DNA from: a virus
Lineage: Duplodnaviria > Heunggongvirae > Uroviricota > Caudoviricetes
Length of the DNA stretch: 8,220 nt
IMG/VR virus record: IMGVR_UViG_2778261515_000002
Location: 1-8,220 of that record
Strand: one strand, 5' to 3'
Part shown: positions 1,025 to 8,220 of the stretch, piece by piece
Layout of the letters: every line of letters begins with the position of its first letter
Numbering within the stretch: the first letter of the stretch is position 1
Translations under genes and position numbers: made by a program
Notes under the pieces: model-generated
What the model saw: only the letters and a program-made list of their open reading frames with translations
What the model was told of the DNA's origin: nothing
Databases searched by the model: none

Positions 1025-1207
1025 TCAGTTCTGCATACACTGTCGGACACTATCAACAATTTCGCAGACCTGAGAAGCTGTATCGAAAAGCTGGCGCGCC
1101 TTATCCAGGCTGACGCATCCCACCAATAAAAAAGGCACCAGTATCGCTACCAGTGCCCATTTCGCCGCCGTTCGCGGCATTCTATGTGTCCAGTGTTTTC
1201 TGCTCAT
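1025..1207 (-). CDS. Small lipoprotein, possible o-spanin-like lysis accessory protein
   Basis: 60 aa from ATG at 1207-1205 (AGGTG upstream; alternative ATG at 1180). N-terminal signal peptide with lipobox LLVG-C; short Cys-containing mature part. Lies immediately after the endolysin, where Rz1-type lipoproteins sit. No i-spanin partner seen. Confidence 0.45.
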   Translation of the reverse strand: MSRKHWTHRMPRTAAKWALVAILVPFLLVGCVSLDKARQLFDTASQVCEIVDSVRQCMQN

Positions 1208-1221
1208 AACACACCTGGTTA

Positions 1222-1602
1222 TCAGCGTTTCAACTGAAAGTGAGGCCCGTCTTTCAGTGTTTTCCAGTCCCCGCCCCATTCGATGGCAGTTCCCAGCTCT
1301 GCGGCAGCCTGCTTAAATGCCTGTGCGATTTTCTCGTACAGAGGCCAGTCCCATGACACCTGGCTGCCAACATAAGCCACAACATCCACCGCATCACCTG
1401 TAAGGTGGCGGCTGTTCATGGTCTGGCTTTTCCCTGCCGCTACCAGCTGTTTCTGGCGATACTTACTGCGCAGACCTTCCGTGATACCAAAATCAACCTC
1501 CGTCAGCTCCAGCGCACGGCGAACGACAGCAACCAGCTGTGGTTTGACGCCCTCCAGATTTTTTTCACTGCGACGGCTGAATCTGAATTTACCCGGCATC
1601 AT
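1222..1602 (-). CDS. Endolysin, peptidase M15 family (L-alanyl-D-glutamate peptidase type)
   Basis: Track ORF starts at GTG 1608; in-frame ATGs at 1602 and 1599 follow AGGTGA, and 1599 has the better spacing. Zn-peptidase motifs SRHLTGDAVD and DGPHFQ are typical of M15 endolysins. Stop TGA at 1224-1222. Confidence 0.8.
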   Translation of the reverse strand: MMPGKFRFSRRSEKNLEGVKPQLVAVVRRALELTEVDFGITEGLRSKYRQKQLVAAGKSQTMNSRHLTGDAVDVVAYVGSQVSWDWPLYEKIAQAFKQAAAELGTAIEWGGDWKTLKDGPHFQLKR

Positions 1603-1604
1603 AT

Positions 1605-1880
1605 TCACCTCAACAATGGAAAGATTTTTGTGACGTTCCCGCGTGCGCGTATCACCAGCACGCAGAACAGCAGGTTAAAAAACACTTCCAGCCAGCCCGT
1701 TGCTAACGGGCGACCACACAGATAGCTGAGGGGGGCAAAGGCATAAAGCAGCATCAGCAGCCAGGCCAGCCATGACATCAGCGGTTTGTGTCTGGAGTCA
1801 CGACGACGATAAAAAAAGAGCGTCAGCACGATAACCGTGCATAACGCCACATTCAGCAATCCGGGAAGGTTACTTAACAT
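1605..1880 (-). CDS. Small membrane protein (2-3 TMDs), holin-like or antiholin/lysis-timing candidate
   Basis: 91 aa from ATG at 1880-1878 with a strong GGAGGAGG SD 5 nt upstream. Hydrophobic segments LLNVALCTVIVLTLFFY, LMSWLAWLLMLLYAFAPLSYL and WLEVFFNLLFCVLVI, with a basic C-terminus. Its stop (1607-1605) abuts the endolysin start. Overlaps the upstream holin by 11 nt. Confidence 0.5.
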   Translation of the reverse strand: MLSNLPGLLNVALCTVIVLTLFFYRRRDSRHKPLMSWLAWLLMLLYAFAPLSYLCGRPLATGWLEVFFNLLFCVLVIRARGNVTKIFPLLR

Positions 1881-2262
1881 TGCCGCCTCCTCCACCCCGC
1901 AGGCGGGAGAACACACCGGACACCAGTGATGCAATATCCTGCTGGTGGATGAACGACAGAATCTTCACCGACACCACCGATACCAGCACCGCACACAGCG
2001 CATCTGCCGATGTACCGTCATACCCTGTTTTTGATGCAATCCAGGCTGACAGCACGCGCGCCCCCAGCACGCCGATAATGAACGACACAAGAAAATGCGC
2101 CACCACACGCCAGGCTGAAAGCGCCTGCGGCATCGTTGCCACAAATAACGCCCCGGCGAACGCACCAAACACAATCCCGAAATCCGTTCCGGTAAACAGC
2201 CCGAATACCGTCGCCCCGCCGAGCGCCGCAGCCGTGCCGGAACCGGACAAGGGTTCAGACAT
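1870..2262 (-). CDS. Phage holin, class I-like (three predicted TMDs)
   Basis: 130 aa from ATG at 2262-2260 with AGGAG about 9 nt upstream (track ORF extends to an upstream alternative start). Three hydrophobic helices and a charged C-terminal tail (SRLRGGGGGNVK). First gene of the lysis cassette. Confidence 0.55.
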   Translation of the reverse strand: MSEPLSGSGTAAALGGATVFGLFTGTDFGIVFGAFAGALFVATMPQALSAWRVVAHFLVSFIIGVLGARVLSAWIASKTGYDGTSADALCAVLVSVVSVKILSFIHQQDIASLVSGVFSRLRGGGGGNVK

Positions 2263-2276
2263 ACTTTTTTCTCCTG

Positions 2277-2303
2277 TAAATAAAAAAGGGCCACCAGCGG
2301 CCC
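2277..2303 (-). terminator. Intrinsic terminator immediately upstream of the holin gene
   Basis: On the minus strand the hairpin GGGCC-GCTGGT-GGCCC (2288-2303) is followed by TTTTTTATTT, ending about 15 nt before the holin SD. Confidence 0.5.
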
Positions 2304-2430
2304 GTAAAAAAACACCCGTCAAAGGCACCCGCAGATGCCTTTTGTGTGGCGTTACCTGATGTGATGTGCGCTGGAGGTAGCGCGGAGAAAATGAAATAAG
2401 ACTTACCGGAAATTAAGGTCAATCTGAGGA

Positions 2431-2459
2431 TTTAAACCATTTTTAAAGCTTAGTAATAT
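2431..2459 (+). promoter_or_regulatory. Candidate sigma70 promoter for a plus-strand small transcript
   Basis: TTTAAA (2431-2436), 17-nt spacer, TAATAT (2454-2459). Consensus match judged by eye only. Confidence 0.3.
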
Positions 2460-2465
2460 CAACTC

Positions 2466-2614
2466 GTCTCCGGAAGGAGACCGATACTTATTCTTCTTCA
2501 CGGACTTTGTCCCGCGGCGTTAATCCGACAGCCGCGCTTTTTTTGCGCCATATTCATCGCTGACTTACATGGCATTGCCACACGGACATTATCAGTGTCC
2601 GTGTTTTCTTTTTT
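2466..2614 (+). ncRNA. Candidate small RNA, about 150 nt
   Basis: Bounded by the candidate promoter and a strong plus-strand terminator. Begins with a GGAA tetraloop hairpin GTCTCC-GGAA-GGAGAC (2466-2481). No plus-strand ORF with an SD in between; the interval holds an internal hairpin plus T7 (about 2509-2543). Confidence 0.3.
2581..2614 (+). terminator. Intrinsic terminator (plus strand)
   Basis: Perfect 8-bp stem CACGGACA / TGTCCGTG with 7-nt loop (2581-2603), followed by TTTTCTTTTTT (2604-2614). Confidence 0.6.
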
Positions 2615-2626
2615 CGAATTAAGAAT

Positions 2627-2651
2627 AAAAAAAACCGCCAGATACGGCGGT
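2627..2651 (-). terminator. Intrinsic terminator (minus strand), convergent with the plus-strand terminator
   Basis: On the minus strand the hairpin ACCGCC-GTATCT-GGCGGT (2634-2651) is followed by eight U (plus-strand A-run 2627-2634). Likely ends the tRNA/methylase transcript. Confidence 0.6.
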
Positions 2652-3013
2652 TGGTCAATGCAAGGAATGAATTTTTTAATTGTAATAAAATCGAGGCGTC
2701 GGGTGCCTCCCGAAGTATTCCGTCCTGTATGAATACTGTGGTTTCCCGCTAAACCGACTCTTTTAACCACCCTCGCCCTGAGGAGCGCCCCGATAGTGTT
2801 ATTTACAACACCAGAATGATGCATCACCGACCCTGCCAGGAAATACAAAATCTCCACCAGCAATGCACCATTCTGCTGCCGTAAAAAAATCAGCACTGAG
2901 GCTAACCTGGCCTCAAATCATAGCCAGAGAACAGAATGCTTTTTCAAAACAACCTGCTCCCACGTAATAAAAATACGCCAGTGCTGCAATACAATAAGGC
3001 TTATTTCAAATGC

Positions 3014-3088
<75 letters not shown>

Positions 3089-3094
3089 ATATAG

Positions 3095-3167
3095 TGCCGA
3101 TTACCGGAATCGAACTGGCGACCCGGTGATTACAAGTCAGTTGCTTTGTCTGCTAAGTTAAATCGGC
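3095..3167 (-). tRNA. tRNA-like gene, tRNA-Thr(UGU)-like, non-canonical (possible pseudogene)
   Basis: Reverse complement is GCCGATTTAACTTAGCAGACAAAGCAACTGACTTGTAATCACCGGGTCGCCAGTTCGATTCCGGTAATCGGCA. Perfect 7-bp acceptor stem (GCCGATT/AATCGGC), T-loop TTCGATT, and anticodon loop CTTGTAA (anticodon TGT). But the D and anticodon stems have mismatches, there is an A-C mismatch in the T stem, and the 3' tail is CTA rather than CCA. Lies 6 nt from the tRNA-Gly. Confidence 0.4.
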
Positions 3168-3348
3168 AACGGTTCCTCGGAAAAAATAAAACGACCGATA
3201 TATGCATTATTTCCCTGTCATCTCCTCGGAACCGACTATCGATATTAATGAGGGCAAACACTATTTCAATAAACATAGTGTCAATATTAGTAAATATATG
3301 TATAAATTTCTATCACTCGTGATTGATTACAAATAATCACACACATAT

Positions 3349-4395
3349 TTAACTATTTTCTTTTATTTCGCTTACAGTCTGGTTAAATCTCTCTTCTTCC
3401 AGCTCCACACCTATTGCATGCCGTCCCAGCGATAATGCTGCTTTTATTGTTGATCTCGACCCCATAAAAAAATCAGCAACCAAATCTCCCGGATGGCTGC
3501 TGGCGGTAATTATCTGACGCAACATATCCGCCGGTTTCTCACAGGGATGTTTGCCGGGGTAATACTGCACAGGCTTGTGCGTCCAGACATCCGTATACGG
3601 AACGGCAGCCGATACGGAAAAATAACGCCGCAGAGATTTGTACTCATCCAGCAGGCTGGCATATTGCCGGTTCAGTTCACTGTATGTGCTGACCAGCTGG
3701 TGGTGTGGCTTTTCCAGTTCACCGCGCTGATGTTTTTCTGCTGCAACACGCGCAAACAACGCCTGTAATTTCAGATAATCGCCTTCGTTCGGCAACTGCC
3801 ACTGACTGGTACCAAACCAGTGCGAAGCCATGTTTTTCTTTCCGGTGGCTTCCGCTATCTGTTTTGCCGTTATCCCCAGTGATTCACGCGCATCACGAAA
3901 GTAAGAAATCAGCGGGGCCATGACGTGCTGTTTTAGTTCACGCCCCTTTGCCGCATAGCCGTCATTTTTGGGCAGGTATGGCCCCTGATAATGTTCTGCA
4001 AACAGAATGCGTTCTGTTGCCGGGAAATACGCCCGCAGGCTTTCCTTGTTGCATCCGTTCCAGCGCCCGGACGGCTTCGCCCAGATAATGTGGTTCAGCA
4101 CATTAAAGCGTTCACGCATCATGATTTCGATATCAGATGCCAGGCGATGACCACAGAACAGGTAGAGACTTCCGGCAGGCTTCAGTACCCGCCAGAACTG
4201 CGCCAGACATCGGTCCAGCCATTTCAGGTAATCATCGTCGCCCTTCCACTGGTTATCCCAGCCCTCGGGCTTCACTTTAAAGTATGGCGGGTCTGTGACT
4301 ATCAGATCGACAGAATTTTCCGGTAAGGTCTGGATAAATTCCAGGCAATCAGCGTTGATTAACTCACAACTGGATATTTTTACAGTATTAGTCAT
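3349..4395 (-). CDS. DNA methyltransferase, beta-class (N6-adenine/N4-cytosine family, DPPY motif), no restriction partner in window
   Basis: 348 aa from ATG at 4395-4393. Motif IV (LIVTDPPYF) lies near the N-terminus and the SAM-binding motif I-like segment (DFFMGSRSTIKAA) near the C-terminus; this circular permutation defines beta-class amino-methyltransferases. DPPY rather than SPPY favours N6-adenine. No restriction endonuclease gene is adjacent. Confidence 0.85.
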   Translation of the reverse strand: MTNTVKISSCELINADCLEFIQTLPENSVDLIVTDPPYFKVKPEGWDNQWKGDDDYLKWLDRCLAQFWRVLKPAGSLYLFCGHRLASDIEIMMRERFNVLNHIIWAKPSGRWNGCNKESLRAYFPATERILFAEHYQGPYLPKNDGYAAKGRELKQHVMAPLISYFRDARESLGITAKQIAEATGKKNMASHWFGTSQWQLPNEGDYLKLQALFARVAAEKHQRGELEKPHHQLVSTYSELNRQYASLLDEYKSLRRYFSVSAAVPYTDVWTHKPVQYYPGKHPCEKPADMLRQIITASSHPGDLVADFFMGSRSTIKAALSLGRHAIGVELEEERFNQTVSEIKENS

Positions 4396-4535: not shown

Positions 4536-4559
4536 TAAAAAGCCTTCACTGCGGAAGGC
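4536..4559 (-). terminator. Intrinsic terminator after the small HTH gene
   Basis: On the minus strand the hairpin GCCTTC-CGCAGT-GAAGGC (4542-4559) overlaps the stop codon and is followed by TTTTTAATTT. Confidence 0.5.
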
Positions 4560-4743
4560 GTCTGTAACAACCGAACTGATAATCAGCCAGACCTGCCATA
4601 ACAAGCTGGGTCAGTATTAACTGGCAACGTTCGCGTGAAAGGTACGTATTCTGCGCAATTTCCCCGACGGTCGCCGGCTCGGTGACGCTTAATTCATTAA
4701 ACACCACTCTGGCGGTTTCGGTCATATCCTGCTGTTTTAGCAT
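4546..4743 (-). CDS. Small winged-helix DNA-binding protein, FaeA/PapI-like (putative regulator)
   Basis: 65 aa from ATG at 4743-4741 with AAGGGA 7 nt upstream (track ORF starts at an upstream TTG). The segment PATVGEIAQNTYLSRERCQLILTQLVMAGL has the helix-turn-helix pattern of FaeA/PapI-type regulators. Has its own terminator. Family assignment is by pattern recall only. Confidence 0.45.
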   Translation of the reverse strand: MLKQQDMTETARVVFNELSVTEPATVGEIAQNTYLSRERCQLILTQLVMAGLADYQFGCYRRLPQ

Positions 4744-5191
4744 GTCTTTTTCCCTTATTCCGGTTAACGTGACATACCAATAACTCTTGTCGAAAAAGCC
4801 AGCAAGCTGAAAGACCGGTATTCGCAACCACCAGCGCGTTTAACGTACTGCGCCGCTTTTCGGGCATAAAAAACCCCGTTTGGCGGCTGGTTTAAGCTGT
4901 GTGGCAAAGTGACCACTCTTAACATCATATTTAAATTTTTACGTACGTAAACCAGCACGAATTTACATTATAAAATACAAAAACAATAACTTTTCATTAC
5001 ATTTCAGAAGCGCATCTCTCATTACAAAAACATCGTCAATAATTACCAGTACGCATAAACGAGATCTTGATCACACTTTGAACCATTAAATAAACTCCAT
5101 ATCTTGAAATAGCCATACCGATTAGATGTATATTTAGGCCGCAGTGACAATATTTTTTAATAATAGTTCCGAAAAGGACTAAGGATTCACG

Positions 5192-6289
5192 ATGAAAAAA
5201 TTAACAGTGGCAATCTCTGCTGTAGCTGCGTCAGTATTAATGGCGATGTCTGCTCAAGCAGCAGAGATTTATAACAAAGACAGCAACAAACTGGATCTGT
5301 ACGGAAAAGTTAATGCCAAGCACTACTTCTCCTCTAACGATAAACACGATGGTGACAAAACTTATGCTCGTCTGGGCTTCAAAGGCGAAACCCAAATCAA
5401 TGATCAACTGACTGGTTTCGGTCAGTGGGAATATGAATTCAAAGGCAACCGTGCTGAATCTCAAGGTTCTTCCGGGGATAAAACTCGCCTTGCATTCGCT
5501 GGCCTGAAATTCGGTGACTACGGCTCCATCGATTATGGCCGTAACTACGGTGTAGCATACGACATCGGTGCGTGGACTGACGTTTTGCCAGAATTCGGTG
5601 GTGATACCTGGACTCAAACCGACGTATTCATGACTCAGCGTGCAACTGGTGTTGCAACTTACCGTAATAACGACTTCTTCGGTCTGGTTGATGGTCTGAA
5701 CTTTGCTGCTCAGTACCAAGGCAAAAACGATCGTAGCAAGCTCGATAACTATACCGAAGGTAACGGTGATGGCTTCGGTTTCTCTGCTACCTATGAATAC
5801 GAAGGATTCGGTATTGGTGCAACTTATGCGAAATCTGACCGTACCGACACTCAAGTTAATCTAGGGAAAGTTCTTCCTGGAGTATTTGCTTCCGGTAAAA
5901 ATGCAGAAGTTTGGGCCGCTGGTCTGAAATATGACGCTAACAACATTTACTTGGCCACTACCTATTCTGAAACCCAGAATATGACGGTATTTGCTGATCG
6001 CTTCGTCGCTAATAAAGCTCAGAACGTTGAGGCTGTTGCACAATATCAGTTCGATTTTGGGCTGCGTCCGTCCGTGGCTTACCTGCAATCTAAAGGTAAA
6101 GATCTCGGAGTATGGGGCGATCAAGACTTAGTTAAATATGTTGATGTAGGCGCAACCTATTACTTCAACAAAAATATGTCTACTTTCGTTGATTACAAAA
6201 TCAACCTGCTTGACAAAAATGATTTCACCAGAGGTCTTGGTATAAACACCGACGATATTGTTGCTGTCGGTATGGTTTACCAGTTCTAA
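5192..6289 (+). CDS. nmpC: Outer-membrane porin, OmpC/OmpF/PhoE family (prophage NmpC/Lc type)
   Basis: 365 aa from ATG 5192 with AAGGA SD 7 nt upstream; TAA at 6287-6289. Signal peptide [23 protein letters not shown] followed by [16 protein letters not shown], and a C-terminal ...VAVGMVYQF beta-barrel signature. Opposite strand to all phage genes, immediately downstream of Q as in DLP12 and PA-2. Codon usage looks host-optimised. Confidence 0.9.
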
Positions 6290-6310
6290 ATCTTTTTATT
6301 AAAAAAGATA

Positions 6311-6340
6311 TGTTGTGGGAGATATTTATCTCCCACAACA
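6311..6340 (-). terminator. 30-bp perfect palindrome, candidate tR'-type terminator downstream of Q
   Basis: TGTTGTGGGAGATA-TT-TATCTCCCACAACA is a perfect inverted repeat. On the minus strand it is followed by TATCTTTTTTAAT; on the plus strand it is not followed by a U-tract. Lies about 140 nt downstream of the Q stop codon. Confidence 0.45.
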
Positions 6341-6427
6341 TGTGGGTGACGCCCTCACGTCACTGCATTAAGAAAGACATTTTGTCTTTTCTTTTTAACC
6401 TTCTGTTATTTATTACTCTAAACTCTT

Positions 6428-6456
6428 GGGGGCGTTTTTGCGTCCCCTTTTTTATT
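6428..6456 (+). terminator. Intrinsic terminator of the porin gene (plus strand)
   Basis: Stem GGGGGCG / CGTCCCC with loop TTTTTG, followed by TTTTTTATT. Confidence 0.55.
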
Positions 6457-6478
6457 CAATTTTACCAGCAAACGTTAA

Positions 6479-6862
6479 TCAATAACATCTAACAACTTCA
6501 AGATCCATCTCGAGACGAACATCCAGTGCCATCAACATTCCGTCGACTATTCCTTCAGCCTTCTGAAGTTTTTTTCCTATATATCCATCAGAACAATGAT
6601 GCTTACGGGCCAGTGCCATAAACGTCATACCAGCCACATAATAATCTACCAGCAAATCATGCAAATCACTGTTGTTCTTTTTCAAACGAGCCATACACCC
6701 ACAAATAACCATTGCGTCATCATCACTACATTGCGGTCGCGATTTAACCTTTGAAGGAATAAGTCCCTTGAATCCGGCTGCAATCGATGACCAGGTGACA
6801 TCCTCATGATTATTTGCCACCCATGCCCCCCAACGCTCAAGAACCATCTGAATATCACGCAT
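6479..6862 (-). CDS. Late-gene antiterminator Q (small Q family, quuD/phage-82-like)
   Basis: 127 aa from ATG at 6862-6860 with AGGAGGTG SD upstream. Begins [14 protein letters not shown] and contains the Cys-rich segment [18 protein letters not shown]. Located before the porin as in DLP12 (quuD-nmpC). Confidence 0.8.
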
Positions 6863-7119
6863 CAGCGCAGCACCTCCTGCACCAGTTTTTCAAACTTTCC
6901 AACTCTGGTTTCCAGCTCTGCCACACAATCCACCAGCTCATCCACCGCTTTTTGTGCGCGGTGTTTCGCCTGCATCAGTTCCCTGAGCGCTGGCACCATA
7001 TCCCGACGAATGGCATCTTTTGTTACACCTGTTTTTTCCAGTTGTTCCGCCTGTCGCAACATTTCCTGTGCCTGTTTACGTAATTGTTCAGGGGTAAAAG
7101 GTGTTGTCTGGTTGTTCAA
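6862..7119 (-). CDS. Hypothetical small coiled-coil protein
   Basis: 85-aa ORF whose first codon is TTG (7119-7117), overlapping the helicase stop (TTGA); its stop overlaps the Q start (TGATG). The first in-frame ATG is at 7062 (66-aa alternative). Strongly helical, charged sequence; no recognised family. Confidence 0.4.
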
Positions 7120-8220
7120 AAGAAACGCTCCATCTTACTGCTGTCAGTTCGTTTGTTGCTGTATCTGCGCGGCTGGGGCTGCTGCATTGGGGTAGAAAGA
7201 ATCTGTGCGCTTTCCTGATCCACAGGCAGAAAATGTCCGTTATAAAAACGCCGGTAAATCGTTCCCAGAGAACCGTTACGTTGTTTCGTGATATTGATTT
7301 CTGCGATGCCCCTGGCCTGCGTATCCGGGTTGTACACTTCATCCCTGTAAAGCATCAGAATGATGTCTGCATCCGCCTCTATTTCTCCGGAATTTTTCAG
7401 GTCTGAGTTCATGGGGCGTTTATTGGGCCTGGACTCCACACCGCGGGAGAGCTGACTCAACGCAACCACCGGTAATCCGCCGGATTTTGCCAGGCCTTTA
7501 AGCCCCTTTGAGATTTCACCCACGGCAAGGTCATGACGCCCCGTGCTCCGGGTTTTTATCAGCCCGAGATAATCAACCACCACCAGCGCCGTTTCCGGAT
7601 GTTTAATCAGGTGGTGTTTCGTTGTTGCGTATATCTCGTCAATGGTCAGGTTCGCCTGGTCCACCATCCAGATATTGCGCCCGGTCATCCGCCCCACTCC
7701 TTGTGAGAAACGTGCCCAGTCTTCGTCTTCAAAGTGAGTGACAGATTTCAGGCGTGATACCGGCATTCCTCCAGCCGCAGATACCATGCGCTCACCAATC
7801 TGGATGTTCGCCATTTCCATTGTGAACAGAAGAACACCATGCCCCTGCTCAGTCACCTTGTCGATGATATCCAGCGCCAGTTCGGTTTTACCCATCGAAG
7901 GACGAGCCGCAATAAATACCAGGTCGCCGGGTTCCATACCGCCTGTTTTTGCGTCCAGTTCATCAATACCGGTCATCAGCGTCCTGGATTTCTCCAGCCC
8001 CTGATTCCGGCATTCAACACGTTCAACCACTTCCGGAAGCACATCATCAATATGTACCGGCTGAATAATACCCTTCCCCGTCGACAATGAGGCCATCATG
8101 TTCTGCGCATCCTTCAGAGCATCTTCAGCTGCTTCACAGGTATGCGCATCACGTAATTTCTGTAATGAACCGCCCCGGAAATCCTGGAGACTAAACTCCC
8201 TGAGAAAGAGGTAAACAGGA
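7116..8220 (-). CDS. DnaB-family replicative DNA helicase, 5'-partial (N-terminus beyond window end)
   Basis: The frame is open from the window edge (8219) to TGA at 7118-7116, about 367 codons in the window. DnaB C-terminal RecA-like domain with Walker A (IAARPSMGKTELA), the ...LMTGIDELDAKTGG... linker and ...ADADIILMLYRDEVY... The track ORF begins at an internal Met (8099). Confidence 0.85.
   Translation of the reverse strand, partial: PVYLFLREFSLQDFRGGSLQKLRDAHTCEAAEDALKDAQNMMASLSTGKGIIQPVHIDDVLPEVVERVECRNQGLEKSRTLMTGIDELDAKTGGMEPGDLVFIAARPSMGKTELALDIIDKVTEQGHGVLLFTMEMANIQIGERMVSAAGGMPVSRLKSVTHFEDEDWARFSQGVGRMTGRNIWMVDQANLTIDEIYATTKHHLIKHPETALVVVDYLGLIKTRSTGRHDLAVGEISKGLKGLAKSGGLPVVALSQLSRGVESRPNKRPMNSDLKNSGEIEADADIILMLYRDEVYNPDTQARGIAEINITKQRNGSLGTIYRRFYNGHFLPVDQESAQILSTPMQQPQPRRYSNKRTDSSKMERFF

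Follow-up and report, generated by a model that had tools for sequence, protein, structure and literature searches.

Holin expression kills the cell, so prophages with constitutively transcribed cargo in the late operon must keep that transcription out of their lysis genes. How this might be achieved is the question raised by the locus described here. The window, meaning the whole stretch of 8,220 nucleotides that was analyzed, is assigned to a phiP27-like lambdoid prophage of E. coli. Over positions 2150-3100 (951 bases compared) it is 99.9% identical to prophages carried by E. coli from pigs (six genomes, of which five are named ETEC, e.g. ETEC1732). A phage record, PP818812.1 (Actinobacillus phage vB_Apl-pPE4), has 97% identity to the window over 205 bases spanning the region upstream of the holin and the holin start, and about 91% over the lysis region, with the same TerB-like and holin gene order. 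It is attributed to Actinobacillus pleuropneumoniae, a host attribution that may merit checking. The late genes of the window lie on the minus strand, in the following order.

8099..7116, minus strand: DnaB helicase
6862..6479, minus strand: Q-family antiterminator (PF06530, E 5.8e-54; RefSeq)
5192..6289, plus strand, opposite to the late genes: OmpC-like porin (Porin_1, E 5e-155)
4743..4546, minus strand: small TrmB-like ORF
4395..3349, minus strand: DNA methylase
3167..3095, minus strand: tRNA-like gene (Rfam, 45.9 bits; not called by ARAGORN)
3088..3014, minus strand: tRNA-Gly
1870..2262, minus strand: holin of 130 aa, first gene of the lysis cassette (Phage_holin_8 in Pfam; RefSeq)
after the holin at 2262..1870, minus strand: second holin
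1602..1225, minus strand: M15 endolysin (RefSeq coordinates)
3' of the endolysin, minus strand: HNH endonuclease, then small terminase

Relatives have tRNA-Arg or tRNA-Thr at the position of 3167..3095, and the tRNA-like sequence of the window may be a decayed tRNA. The approximately 750 nt between tRNA-Gly and the holin hold no credible protein gene. In the identical prophage RefSeq places a hypothetical protein (132-aa ORF) at 2498..2896 on the minus strand, overlapping RNA-like elements. This ORF has no Pfam match, is unannotated in an 89%-identical relative and is probably not a gene.

The first-pass annotation had proposed a GC-rich hairpin and U-tract on the coding strand at 2277-2303, ahead of the holin. 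Such an element was found at 2303..2278 on the minus strand, and the proposed interval covers both stem and U-tract. Its distance to the holin ribosome-binding site had been put at about 15 nt, which is roughly right: the stem ends 12 nt, and the U-tract 2 nt, before the Shine-Dalgarno sequence.

2303..2288, minus strand: hairpin B, GGGCCG CUGG UGGCCC (consensus scan, folding, strict scan, relatives)
2287..2278, minus strand: U-tract UUUUUUAUUU, directly 3' of the hairpin B stem (consensus scan, alignment)
2275..2271, minus strand: Shine-Dalgarno sequence AGGAG, then an A-rich spacer and the ATG at 2262..2260 (sequence, RefSeq, Pfam)

Read along the minus strand, the arrangement is UGUUUUUUUAC GGGCCG CUGG UGGCCC UUUUUUAUUU AC AGGAG AAAAAAGU AUG. 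The stem GGGCCG/UGGCCC consists of five G-C pairs and a closing G.U around the 4-nt loop CUGG; the consensus terminator scan likewise counted 6 pairs (5 G-C) and a 4-base loop, and folding in isolation gave -10.8 kcal/mol. The hairpin is thus short (about -10 kcal/mol), and it has no upstream A-tract. Past the stem, the plus strand reads GUAAAAAAA and contains no U-tract, and hairpin B is therefore one-directional, in the sense of the late strand. It is best read as an ordinary intrinsic (rho-independent) terminator of the kind that is read through with Q in lambdoid phages.

A strict scan accepted only perfect stems that contained 5 or more G-C pairs and were followed by 8 bases of which 6 or more were T. 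Four such sites were returned on the minus strand of the window, with stem ends at 6311, 2635, 2288 and 1134, along with two on the opposite strand. Dinucleotide-preserving shuffles (n = 200) averaged 0.045 strict sites per strand, with a maximum of 1. A chance origin of hairpin B with its U-tract is excluded.

The holin start at 2262 is the one annotated by RefSeq in the identical prophage. Moreover, the Pfam Phage_holin_8 alignment begins at residue 1 of the protein, and homology among relatives breaks just upstream of the ribosome-binding site, consistent with this start. A holin promoter 3' of the U-tract is ruled out, with only 2 nt left before the Shine-Dalgarno sequence. As there is no room for a promoter at this point, every holin mRNA starts upstream and crosses hairpins A (described below) and B. 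A holin from a prophage of this Stx2e configuration has been shown to be needed for the antibiotic-induced rise in extracellular Stx2e (PMC12571312).

The proximity of the stem to the Shine-Dalgarno sequence, 12 nt, also bears on a different function, in which the hairpin is not a terminator and acts on the read-through late mRNA as a 5' stabilizer or as a modulator of holin translation. Base pairs between the U6 tract and the A6 spacer surrounding the Shine-Dalgarno sequence do appear in the minimum-free-energy fold, and in lambda S an upstream structure controls start-codon choice. The U6-A6 pairing is weak, however, and the A-run varies in relatives from AAAAA to AAAAAAA, or is replaced by GGAAGU. 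In lambda-S-type phages the same hairpin is separated by about 55 nt from the start of another holin, and a stabilizer would have no need of a near-invariant U-tract. We regard such a role as very improbable.

Further conserved structures were located immediately upstream.

2339..2324, minus strand: hairpin A, GGCAUC UGCG GGUGCC then UUUGAC (paired cells 94.7%; stem -9.1 kcal/mol)
2304..2323, minus strand: conserved U-rich linker between A and B, UUUGACGGGUGUUUUUUUAC (relatives' alignment)
2383..2368, minus strand: third conserved hairpin, upstream of A and B

Hairpin A, 20 nt upstream of hairpin B, makes the two a tandem pair; it is predicted to be a weak terminator on the late strand, and on the plus strand it is followed by UUUUGUGUGG. 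An antisense RNA from the holin gene ending at hairpin A on the plus strand was considered and rejected, there being no promoter-like site in the GC-rich 5' region of the holin. We think it probable that hairpin B is a one-directional intrinsic terminator, the second of this tandem pair at the boundary between accessory and lysis regions, and that it keeps the lysis genes silent until Q-dependent read-through.

The same set of structures can be read in another way. Hairpin B might mainly be the terminator and Hfq-binding 3' module of a sense sRNA expressed in the lysogen, or of an sRNA derived from a 3'UTR, at about 2395..2278. Shielding of the holin would then be a by-product, as the StxS sRNA arises from tR' of Stx phages. 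The layout is that of an Hfq module, with two hairpins, the internal U-rich UGUUUUUUUAC, a GC-rich terminal hairpin and a 3' U6 tail. The third hairpin shows compensatory changes across relatives (GCGCU/AGCGC, GCGCC/GGCGC, GCGUC/GACGC), and a unit of about 115 nt behaves as a mobile block, unannotated, in 532 of 5426 E. coli genomes. In lambdoid prophages, Pas sRNA genes typically lie directly adjacent to the holin-lysozyme operon (preprint 10.64898/2026.05.13.724894), and EPEC RIL-seq data include an Hfq-bound fragment of the sense strand that derives from the holin-upstream region (PMC8550237 supplement).

Against an sRNA, no credible sigma-70 promoter was found upstream. The best match, TTGACC-17-TTATTT (2423..2395), has no A at the key position -11, and TTAACC takes the place of TTGACC in most relatives; the match was rejected as a strong promoter. 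Rfam was searched with the whole window and then with 2250-3000 at permissive thresholds, and gave nothing credible over the hairpins (2400..2278). The only match, to suhB/mmgR at 22.4 bits against a cut-off of 41, is weak and was taken as a chance resemblance between two-hairpin structures. Identity with PasA or PasC was rejected, since the published probe sequences of neither show similarity. Moreover, in 44 related loci what precedes the hairpins is just the stop codon of a pair of protein-coding genes. We consider it unlikely that sRNA formation is the main role of the hairpin.

The occurrence of the element among relatives was assessed with 90 holin starts of the Phage_holin_8-type family, taken from phage records, E. 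coli genomes and viral contigs. This set was anchored on the holin protein and not on the hairpin. Hairpin B was present in 77 of the 90 loci, within about 45 nt of the ATG. Homology of the relatives to the window breaks at about -44/-50, -90 or -120 from the holin ATG, or runs through. These breaks fall on either side of hairpins A and B, which places the hairpins at a mosaic joint. The unit upstream of them is the TerB-DUF3927 gene pair in the 44 loci mentioned above, its stop codon lying a few bases before hairpin A; in the others it is a noncoding spacer, as in the window, or the stx2e region of phiP27. What lies between tRNA-Gly and the holin varies by relative in the manner of morons: RNA spacer, TerB-DUF3927, stx2e or AB5 toxins.

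A scan of viral contigs for the exact hairpin yielded 119 loci, 117 of which had enough flank to be classified. A P27-type holin, including a few diverged homologs, followed in 81 of these, a lambda-S-type holin in 34 and neither in 2. The lambda-S-type holin behind the hairpin is unrelated to the P27-type and has a dual start. The hairpin module, here taken as about 130 nt, was found in the same 532 of 5426 complete E. coli genomes (about 10%), where it is unannotated and moves as a block.

Among 29 distinct relatives, 6 of the 10 alignment columns of the U-tract are invariant and the others nearly so. Stem cells were paired in 96-97% of cases, compared with 37-63% when the 3' partners were slid by 1-3 columns. 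No double compensatory changes were seen in hairpins A and B in this set, and covariation measures for the two did not rise above shuffles, because the nearly invariant columns barely vary. The stem changes observed are one-sided, namely C to U opposite G at two positions, the closing G.U to G-C and the outer G-C to G.U, and they preserve pairing on the late strand only. The loop of hairpin B varies freely (CUGG, ACAG, UUGG), and the variants of a few relatives weaken the stem. This pattern of conservation lends modest support to a terminator structure and is not proof of it.

Conservation at a mosaic joint could also arise if the hairpin pair were a junction or linker for the recombination of lambdoid modules, its terminator shape being a historical leftover with little present role. 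The homology breaks flanking hairpins A and B would be expected of such a linker, as would an identical hairpin common to phages with different holins and cargo; in SerU-LTIIb, a degenerate copy of the hairpin lies beside a truncated duplicate of the holin. A leftover is harder to reconcile with a loop that varies while pairing is kept, with changes compatible with pairing on the late strand only, and with unrelated sequences of the same shape at the same position before class II holins. We judge this reading improbable. It accounts only for the spread of the element and is compatible with termination; likewise, neither the sRNA nor an action on the late mRNA is mutually exclusive with it.

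Holin mRNA would have to be read through a terminator at this place. As the first-pass annotation had assumed, a Q-family antiterminator gene (PF06530, 6862..6479) lies upstream of hairpin B on the same strand. A putative late promoter unit and further terminators on the late strand were located as follows.

4951..4868, minus strand: putative late promoter unit (conservation and position), with -35 TTTACG at 4951..4946, -10 TAUGAU at 4929..4924, a conserved leader and a degenerate first terminator at 4890..4868
4559..4542, 2916..2896 and 2709..2693, minus strand: weaker terminator-like sites (consensus scan)
2652..2633, minus strand: strong terminator (strict scan)
1158..1133, minus strand: terminator with an 11-bp stem, -15.6 kcal/mol, just past the endolysin gene

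In the conserved block a -10-like TAT..T is followed by GTTAAGAGTGGTYACTTYGCCACACAGCTTAAACC and then by a hairpin with a U-run. It lies downstream of the PF06530 Q gene in all 15 loci, the window included, that have sufficient upstream flank. Its distance to the Q stop codon is 49-77 nt in four loci and greater where a gene has been inserted, a porin in the window and a GIY-YIG gene in phiP27. The block hairpin shows compensatory variation (CCCGC/GCGGG, CCCGU/ACGGG, CCGCC/GGCGG). We infer that the late promoter and its leader, together with the first terminator, make up this block; no site for Q binding was recognized in 4951..4868. The first terminator of the window is the weakest of 11 variants, at -2.9 kcal/mol compared with -5.0 to -12.1 kcal/mol, and its degeneracy suggests that late transcription may be leaky in the lysogen. 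In Stx phages the late promoter is constitutive (PMC7547250). If that holds here, the downstream terminators, hairpin B among them, would matter more in this prophage.

A late promoter directly 3' of Q, at 6479..6341, was rejected, as this stretch has no phiP27 homology and belongs to the porin insertion. The porin is inserted between Q and the putative late promoter and is followed by a plus-strand terminator at 6428..6447. A 14-bp hairpin at 6341..6310 has terminator form on the late strand only and would therefore stop transcription that reads through from Q from running antisense into the porin gene.

The terminators at 2303..2278 and 1158..1133 bracket the lysis cassette on both sides; the latter is overlapped by an unannotated 84-aa ORF at 1279..1025. 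In all, four strict late-strand terminators lie between Q and the terminase gene, an arrangement that would make sense only with processive antitermination. Q is known to permit read-through of terminators that block the lysis genes, and morons carry terminators of their own (PMC3202840, PMC8065619).

A promoter upstream of the hairpin had also been supposed, and a candidate was found. The consensus scan gave a promoter-like TTGAAA-16-TAATAT at 3269..3242 on the minus strand, preceding the tRNAs. The corresponding position in the 933W record is annotated with a promoter for the tRNAs and, downstream of these, with a terminator, and a primary transcription start driving the tRNAs has been mapped in a Sakai lysogen (PMC7547250). 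The proposal that hairpin B stops transcripts from the tRNA and methylase region holds insofar as a terminator-shaped element does stand on their strand. It does not hold for a sole barrier, since such transcripts would first meet 2916..2896, 2709..2693 and 2652..2633, and then hairpin A at 2339..2324. With three other late-strand terminators between the tRNAs and hairpin B, the latter may be redundant.

Between 2633 and 2303, consensus scanning and comparison with relatives revealed no convincing late-strand promoter. A match at 2617..2588 was rejected because its -10 falls within a plus-strand terminator loop and the spacing is not constant among relatives. Hairpin B is thus best seen, in the window, as the last of a series of terminators and, in relatives, as the proper 3' end of the TerB-DUF3927 unit. 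The first-pass interpretation as a whole is partly supported, being sound by analogy and by local logic. It is on the same grounds that we infer termination itself, its efficiency, its dependence on Q and the transcripts that would be stopped.

According to the terminator mechanism that we favor, the accessory region before the boundary would consist of tRNAs and small-RNA-like elements, with the TerB-DUF3927 pair in relatives. In the lysogen, ordinary polymerase arriving from upstream would be released at the U-tract, which ends 2 nt short of the ribosome-binding site of the holin. Its source might be the tRNA promoter, the late promoter with its apparently decayed first terminator, or transcription that leaks through the terminators upstream. 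The holin, the second holin and the endolysin would remain untranscribed. On induction, Q would load onto polymerase at the late promoter and render it terminator-resistant, and the Q-modified polymerase would then pass hairpin B and the remaining terminators on the late strand and go on to transcribe the lysis and structural genes.

Other RNA-like elements lie between the tRNAs and the holin. A candidate antisense sRNA of about 80 nt was located on the plus strand at 2466..2544, with a promoter-like TTTAAA-17-TAATAT at 2431..2459. Its parts are a hairpin at the 5' end, GUCUCC GGAA GGAGAC, a single-stranded core that is conserved among relatives, and a terminator, CGCGGC...GCCGCG followed by U7. 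Both stems show compensatory changes (U-A/C-G in 5 of 14 sequences, C-G/U-A in 6 of 14), and it has no Rfam match. A second plus-strand terminator is found at 2580..2604. On the minus strand, the sense element 2819..2623, which ends with the terminator 2652..2633, gave a full-length match to STnc100 that is sub-threshold (22.6 bits, cut-off 47) with E 0.011 in a local search; the CGGGAGGCACCCG core is held in common. EPEC PasD2 scores 41 bits on the same Rfam STnc100 model, and the element may be a distant member of the PasD/STnc100 group of prophage sRNAs.

The hairpin is missing from 13 of the 90 related holin loci, which indicates that it is dispensable for the phage. In each of the 13, an AB5 toxin operon is joined directly to the ribosome-binding site of the holin; it is pertussis-like in 11 and subtilase-like in 2, with four distinct junctions. 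Examples, in the coordinates of each locus, are as follows.

L025, 2456..3731: AB5 operon fused to the holin ribosome-binding site
L024, 1738..4000: AB5 operon, fused likewise
L066, 2595..4000: AB5 operon, fused likewise
L007, 1293..3017: AB5 operon, fused likewise

A simple scan of the 1.2 kb upstream found no terminator-like site in four representatives (L025, L024, L017 and L007), and in L066 a single weak match at -231, with 3 G-C pairs and a poor T-tail. This pattern fits what would be expected if the hairpins uncouple lysogen-expressed cargo from lysis, with toxins that rely on late transcription and lysis left coupled. The absence of the hairpin could also be a by-product of toxin-cassette insertion, and the independent events are few.

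A more far-reaching reading would join several of these observations. In it, 2383..2278 would be a sense sRNA of the lysogen, the hairpin pair would be the main block ahead of the holin, and the absence of the pair at AB5 fusions would mark a coupling switch. We put this forward tentatively and think the combination rather unlikely. If true, three prophage RNAs would be packed into the interval from the tRNAs to the holin: the one from 2383..2278, the PasD/STnc100-like RNA and the antisense sRNA. The role of main barrier would follow from the apparently decayed tR' of this prophage, and the loss of the hairpins at AB5-holin fusions would mark a switch between lysis-uncoupled and lysis-coupled cargo.

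The arrangement has close parallels in known systems. Lambda tR', which ends the 6S RNA, is likewise an intrinsic late-strand terminator placed after Q/pR' and before the holin gene, and it is overridden by Q-modified polymerase. A second lambda hairpin, GGCAGGAGG...CCUCCUGCC then GUUUUG, lies about 125 nt upstream of S, and the tandem late terminators of lambda were described in the 1980s. In contrast to lambda, where the sequence is unrelated, the terminator described here abuts the holin ribosome-binding site (2 nt) and stands kilobases from the putative late promoter, with cargo genes between.

The same order is seen in 933W and other Stx phages, namely Q, pR', terminators, tRNA promoter, tRNAs, terminator and late genes. 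The 933W annotation includes a 'possible rho-independent terminator upstream of the stx genes', after the tRNAs and promoter pT. Sequences, holin family and Q family differ, and in Stx phages the post-tRNA terminator precedes toxin genes rather than the holin. In 933W, EPEC prophage PP2 and an Stx2k phage, an unrelated hairpin with UUUUU stands about 40 nt before a class II holin.

A moron is an autonomous promoter-gene-terminator cassette in a prophage late region (PMC8065619). Like moron terminators, the hairpin pair closes off cargo units that replace one another in the interval from Q to the lysis genes. In contrast to morons, the unit that it ends in the window has RNA-like elements only, with no protein gene, and no promoter of its own was found. 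The terminators of StxS (from tR'), PasA, PasC and PasD are likewise GC-rich hairpins with poly-U in the same neighborhood, and they double as sRNA 3' ends and Hfq sites. For 2400..2278 no relationship to them by sequence or Rfam was found, and PasA and PasC are antisense to the late genes. The literature searched yielded no described terminator of this kind for phiP27-like phages. Hairpin B is an unannotated, new example of a familiar device, and the underlying principle is textbook.

The locus offers a clean and widely distributed example of how cargo such as tRNAs, sRNAs and morons may be insulated from lysis. The presence of the hairpin behind tRNA, sRNA and TerB cargo and its absence at AB5 fusions provide a testable rule for which cargo is coupled to lysis, and such a rule would bear on toxin release in pig and human E. 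coli pathogens.
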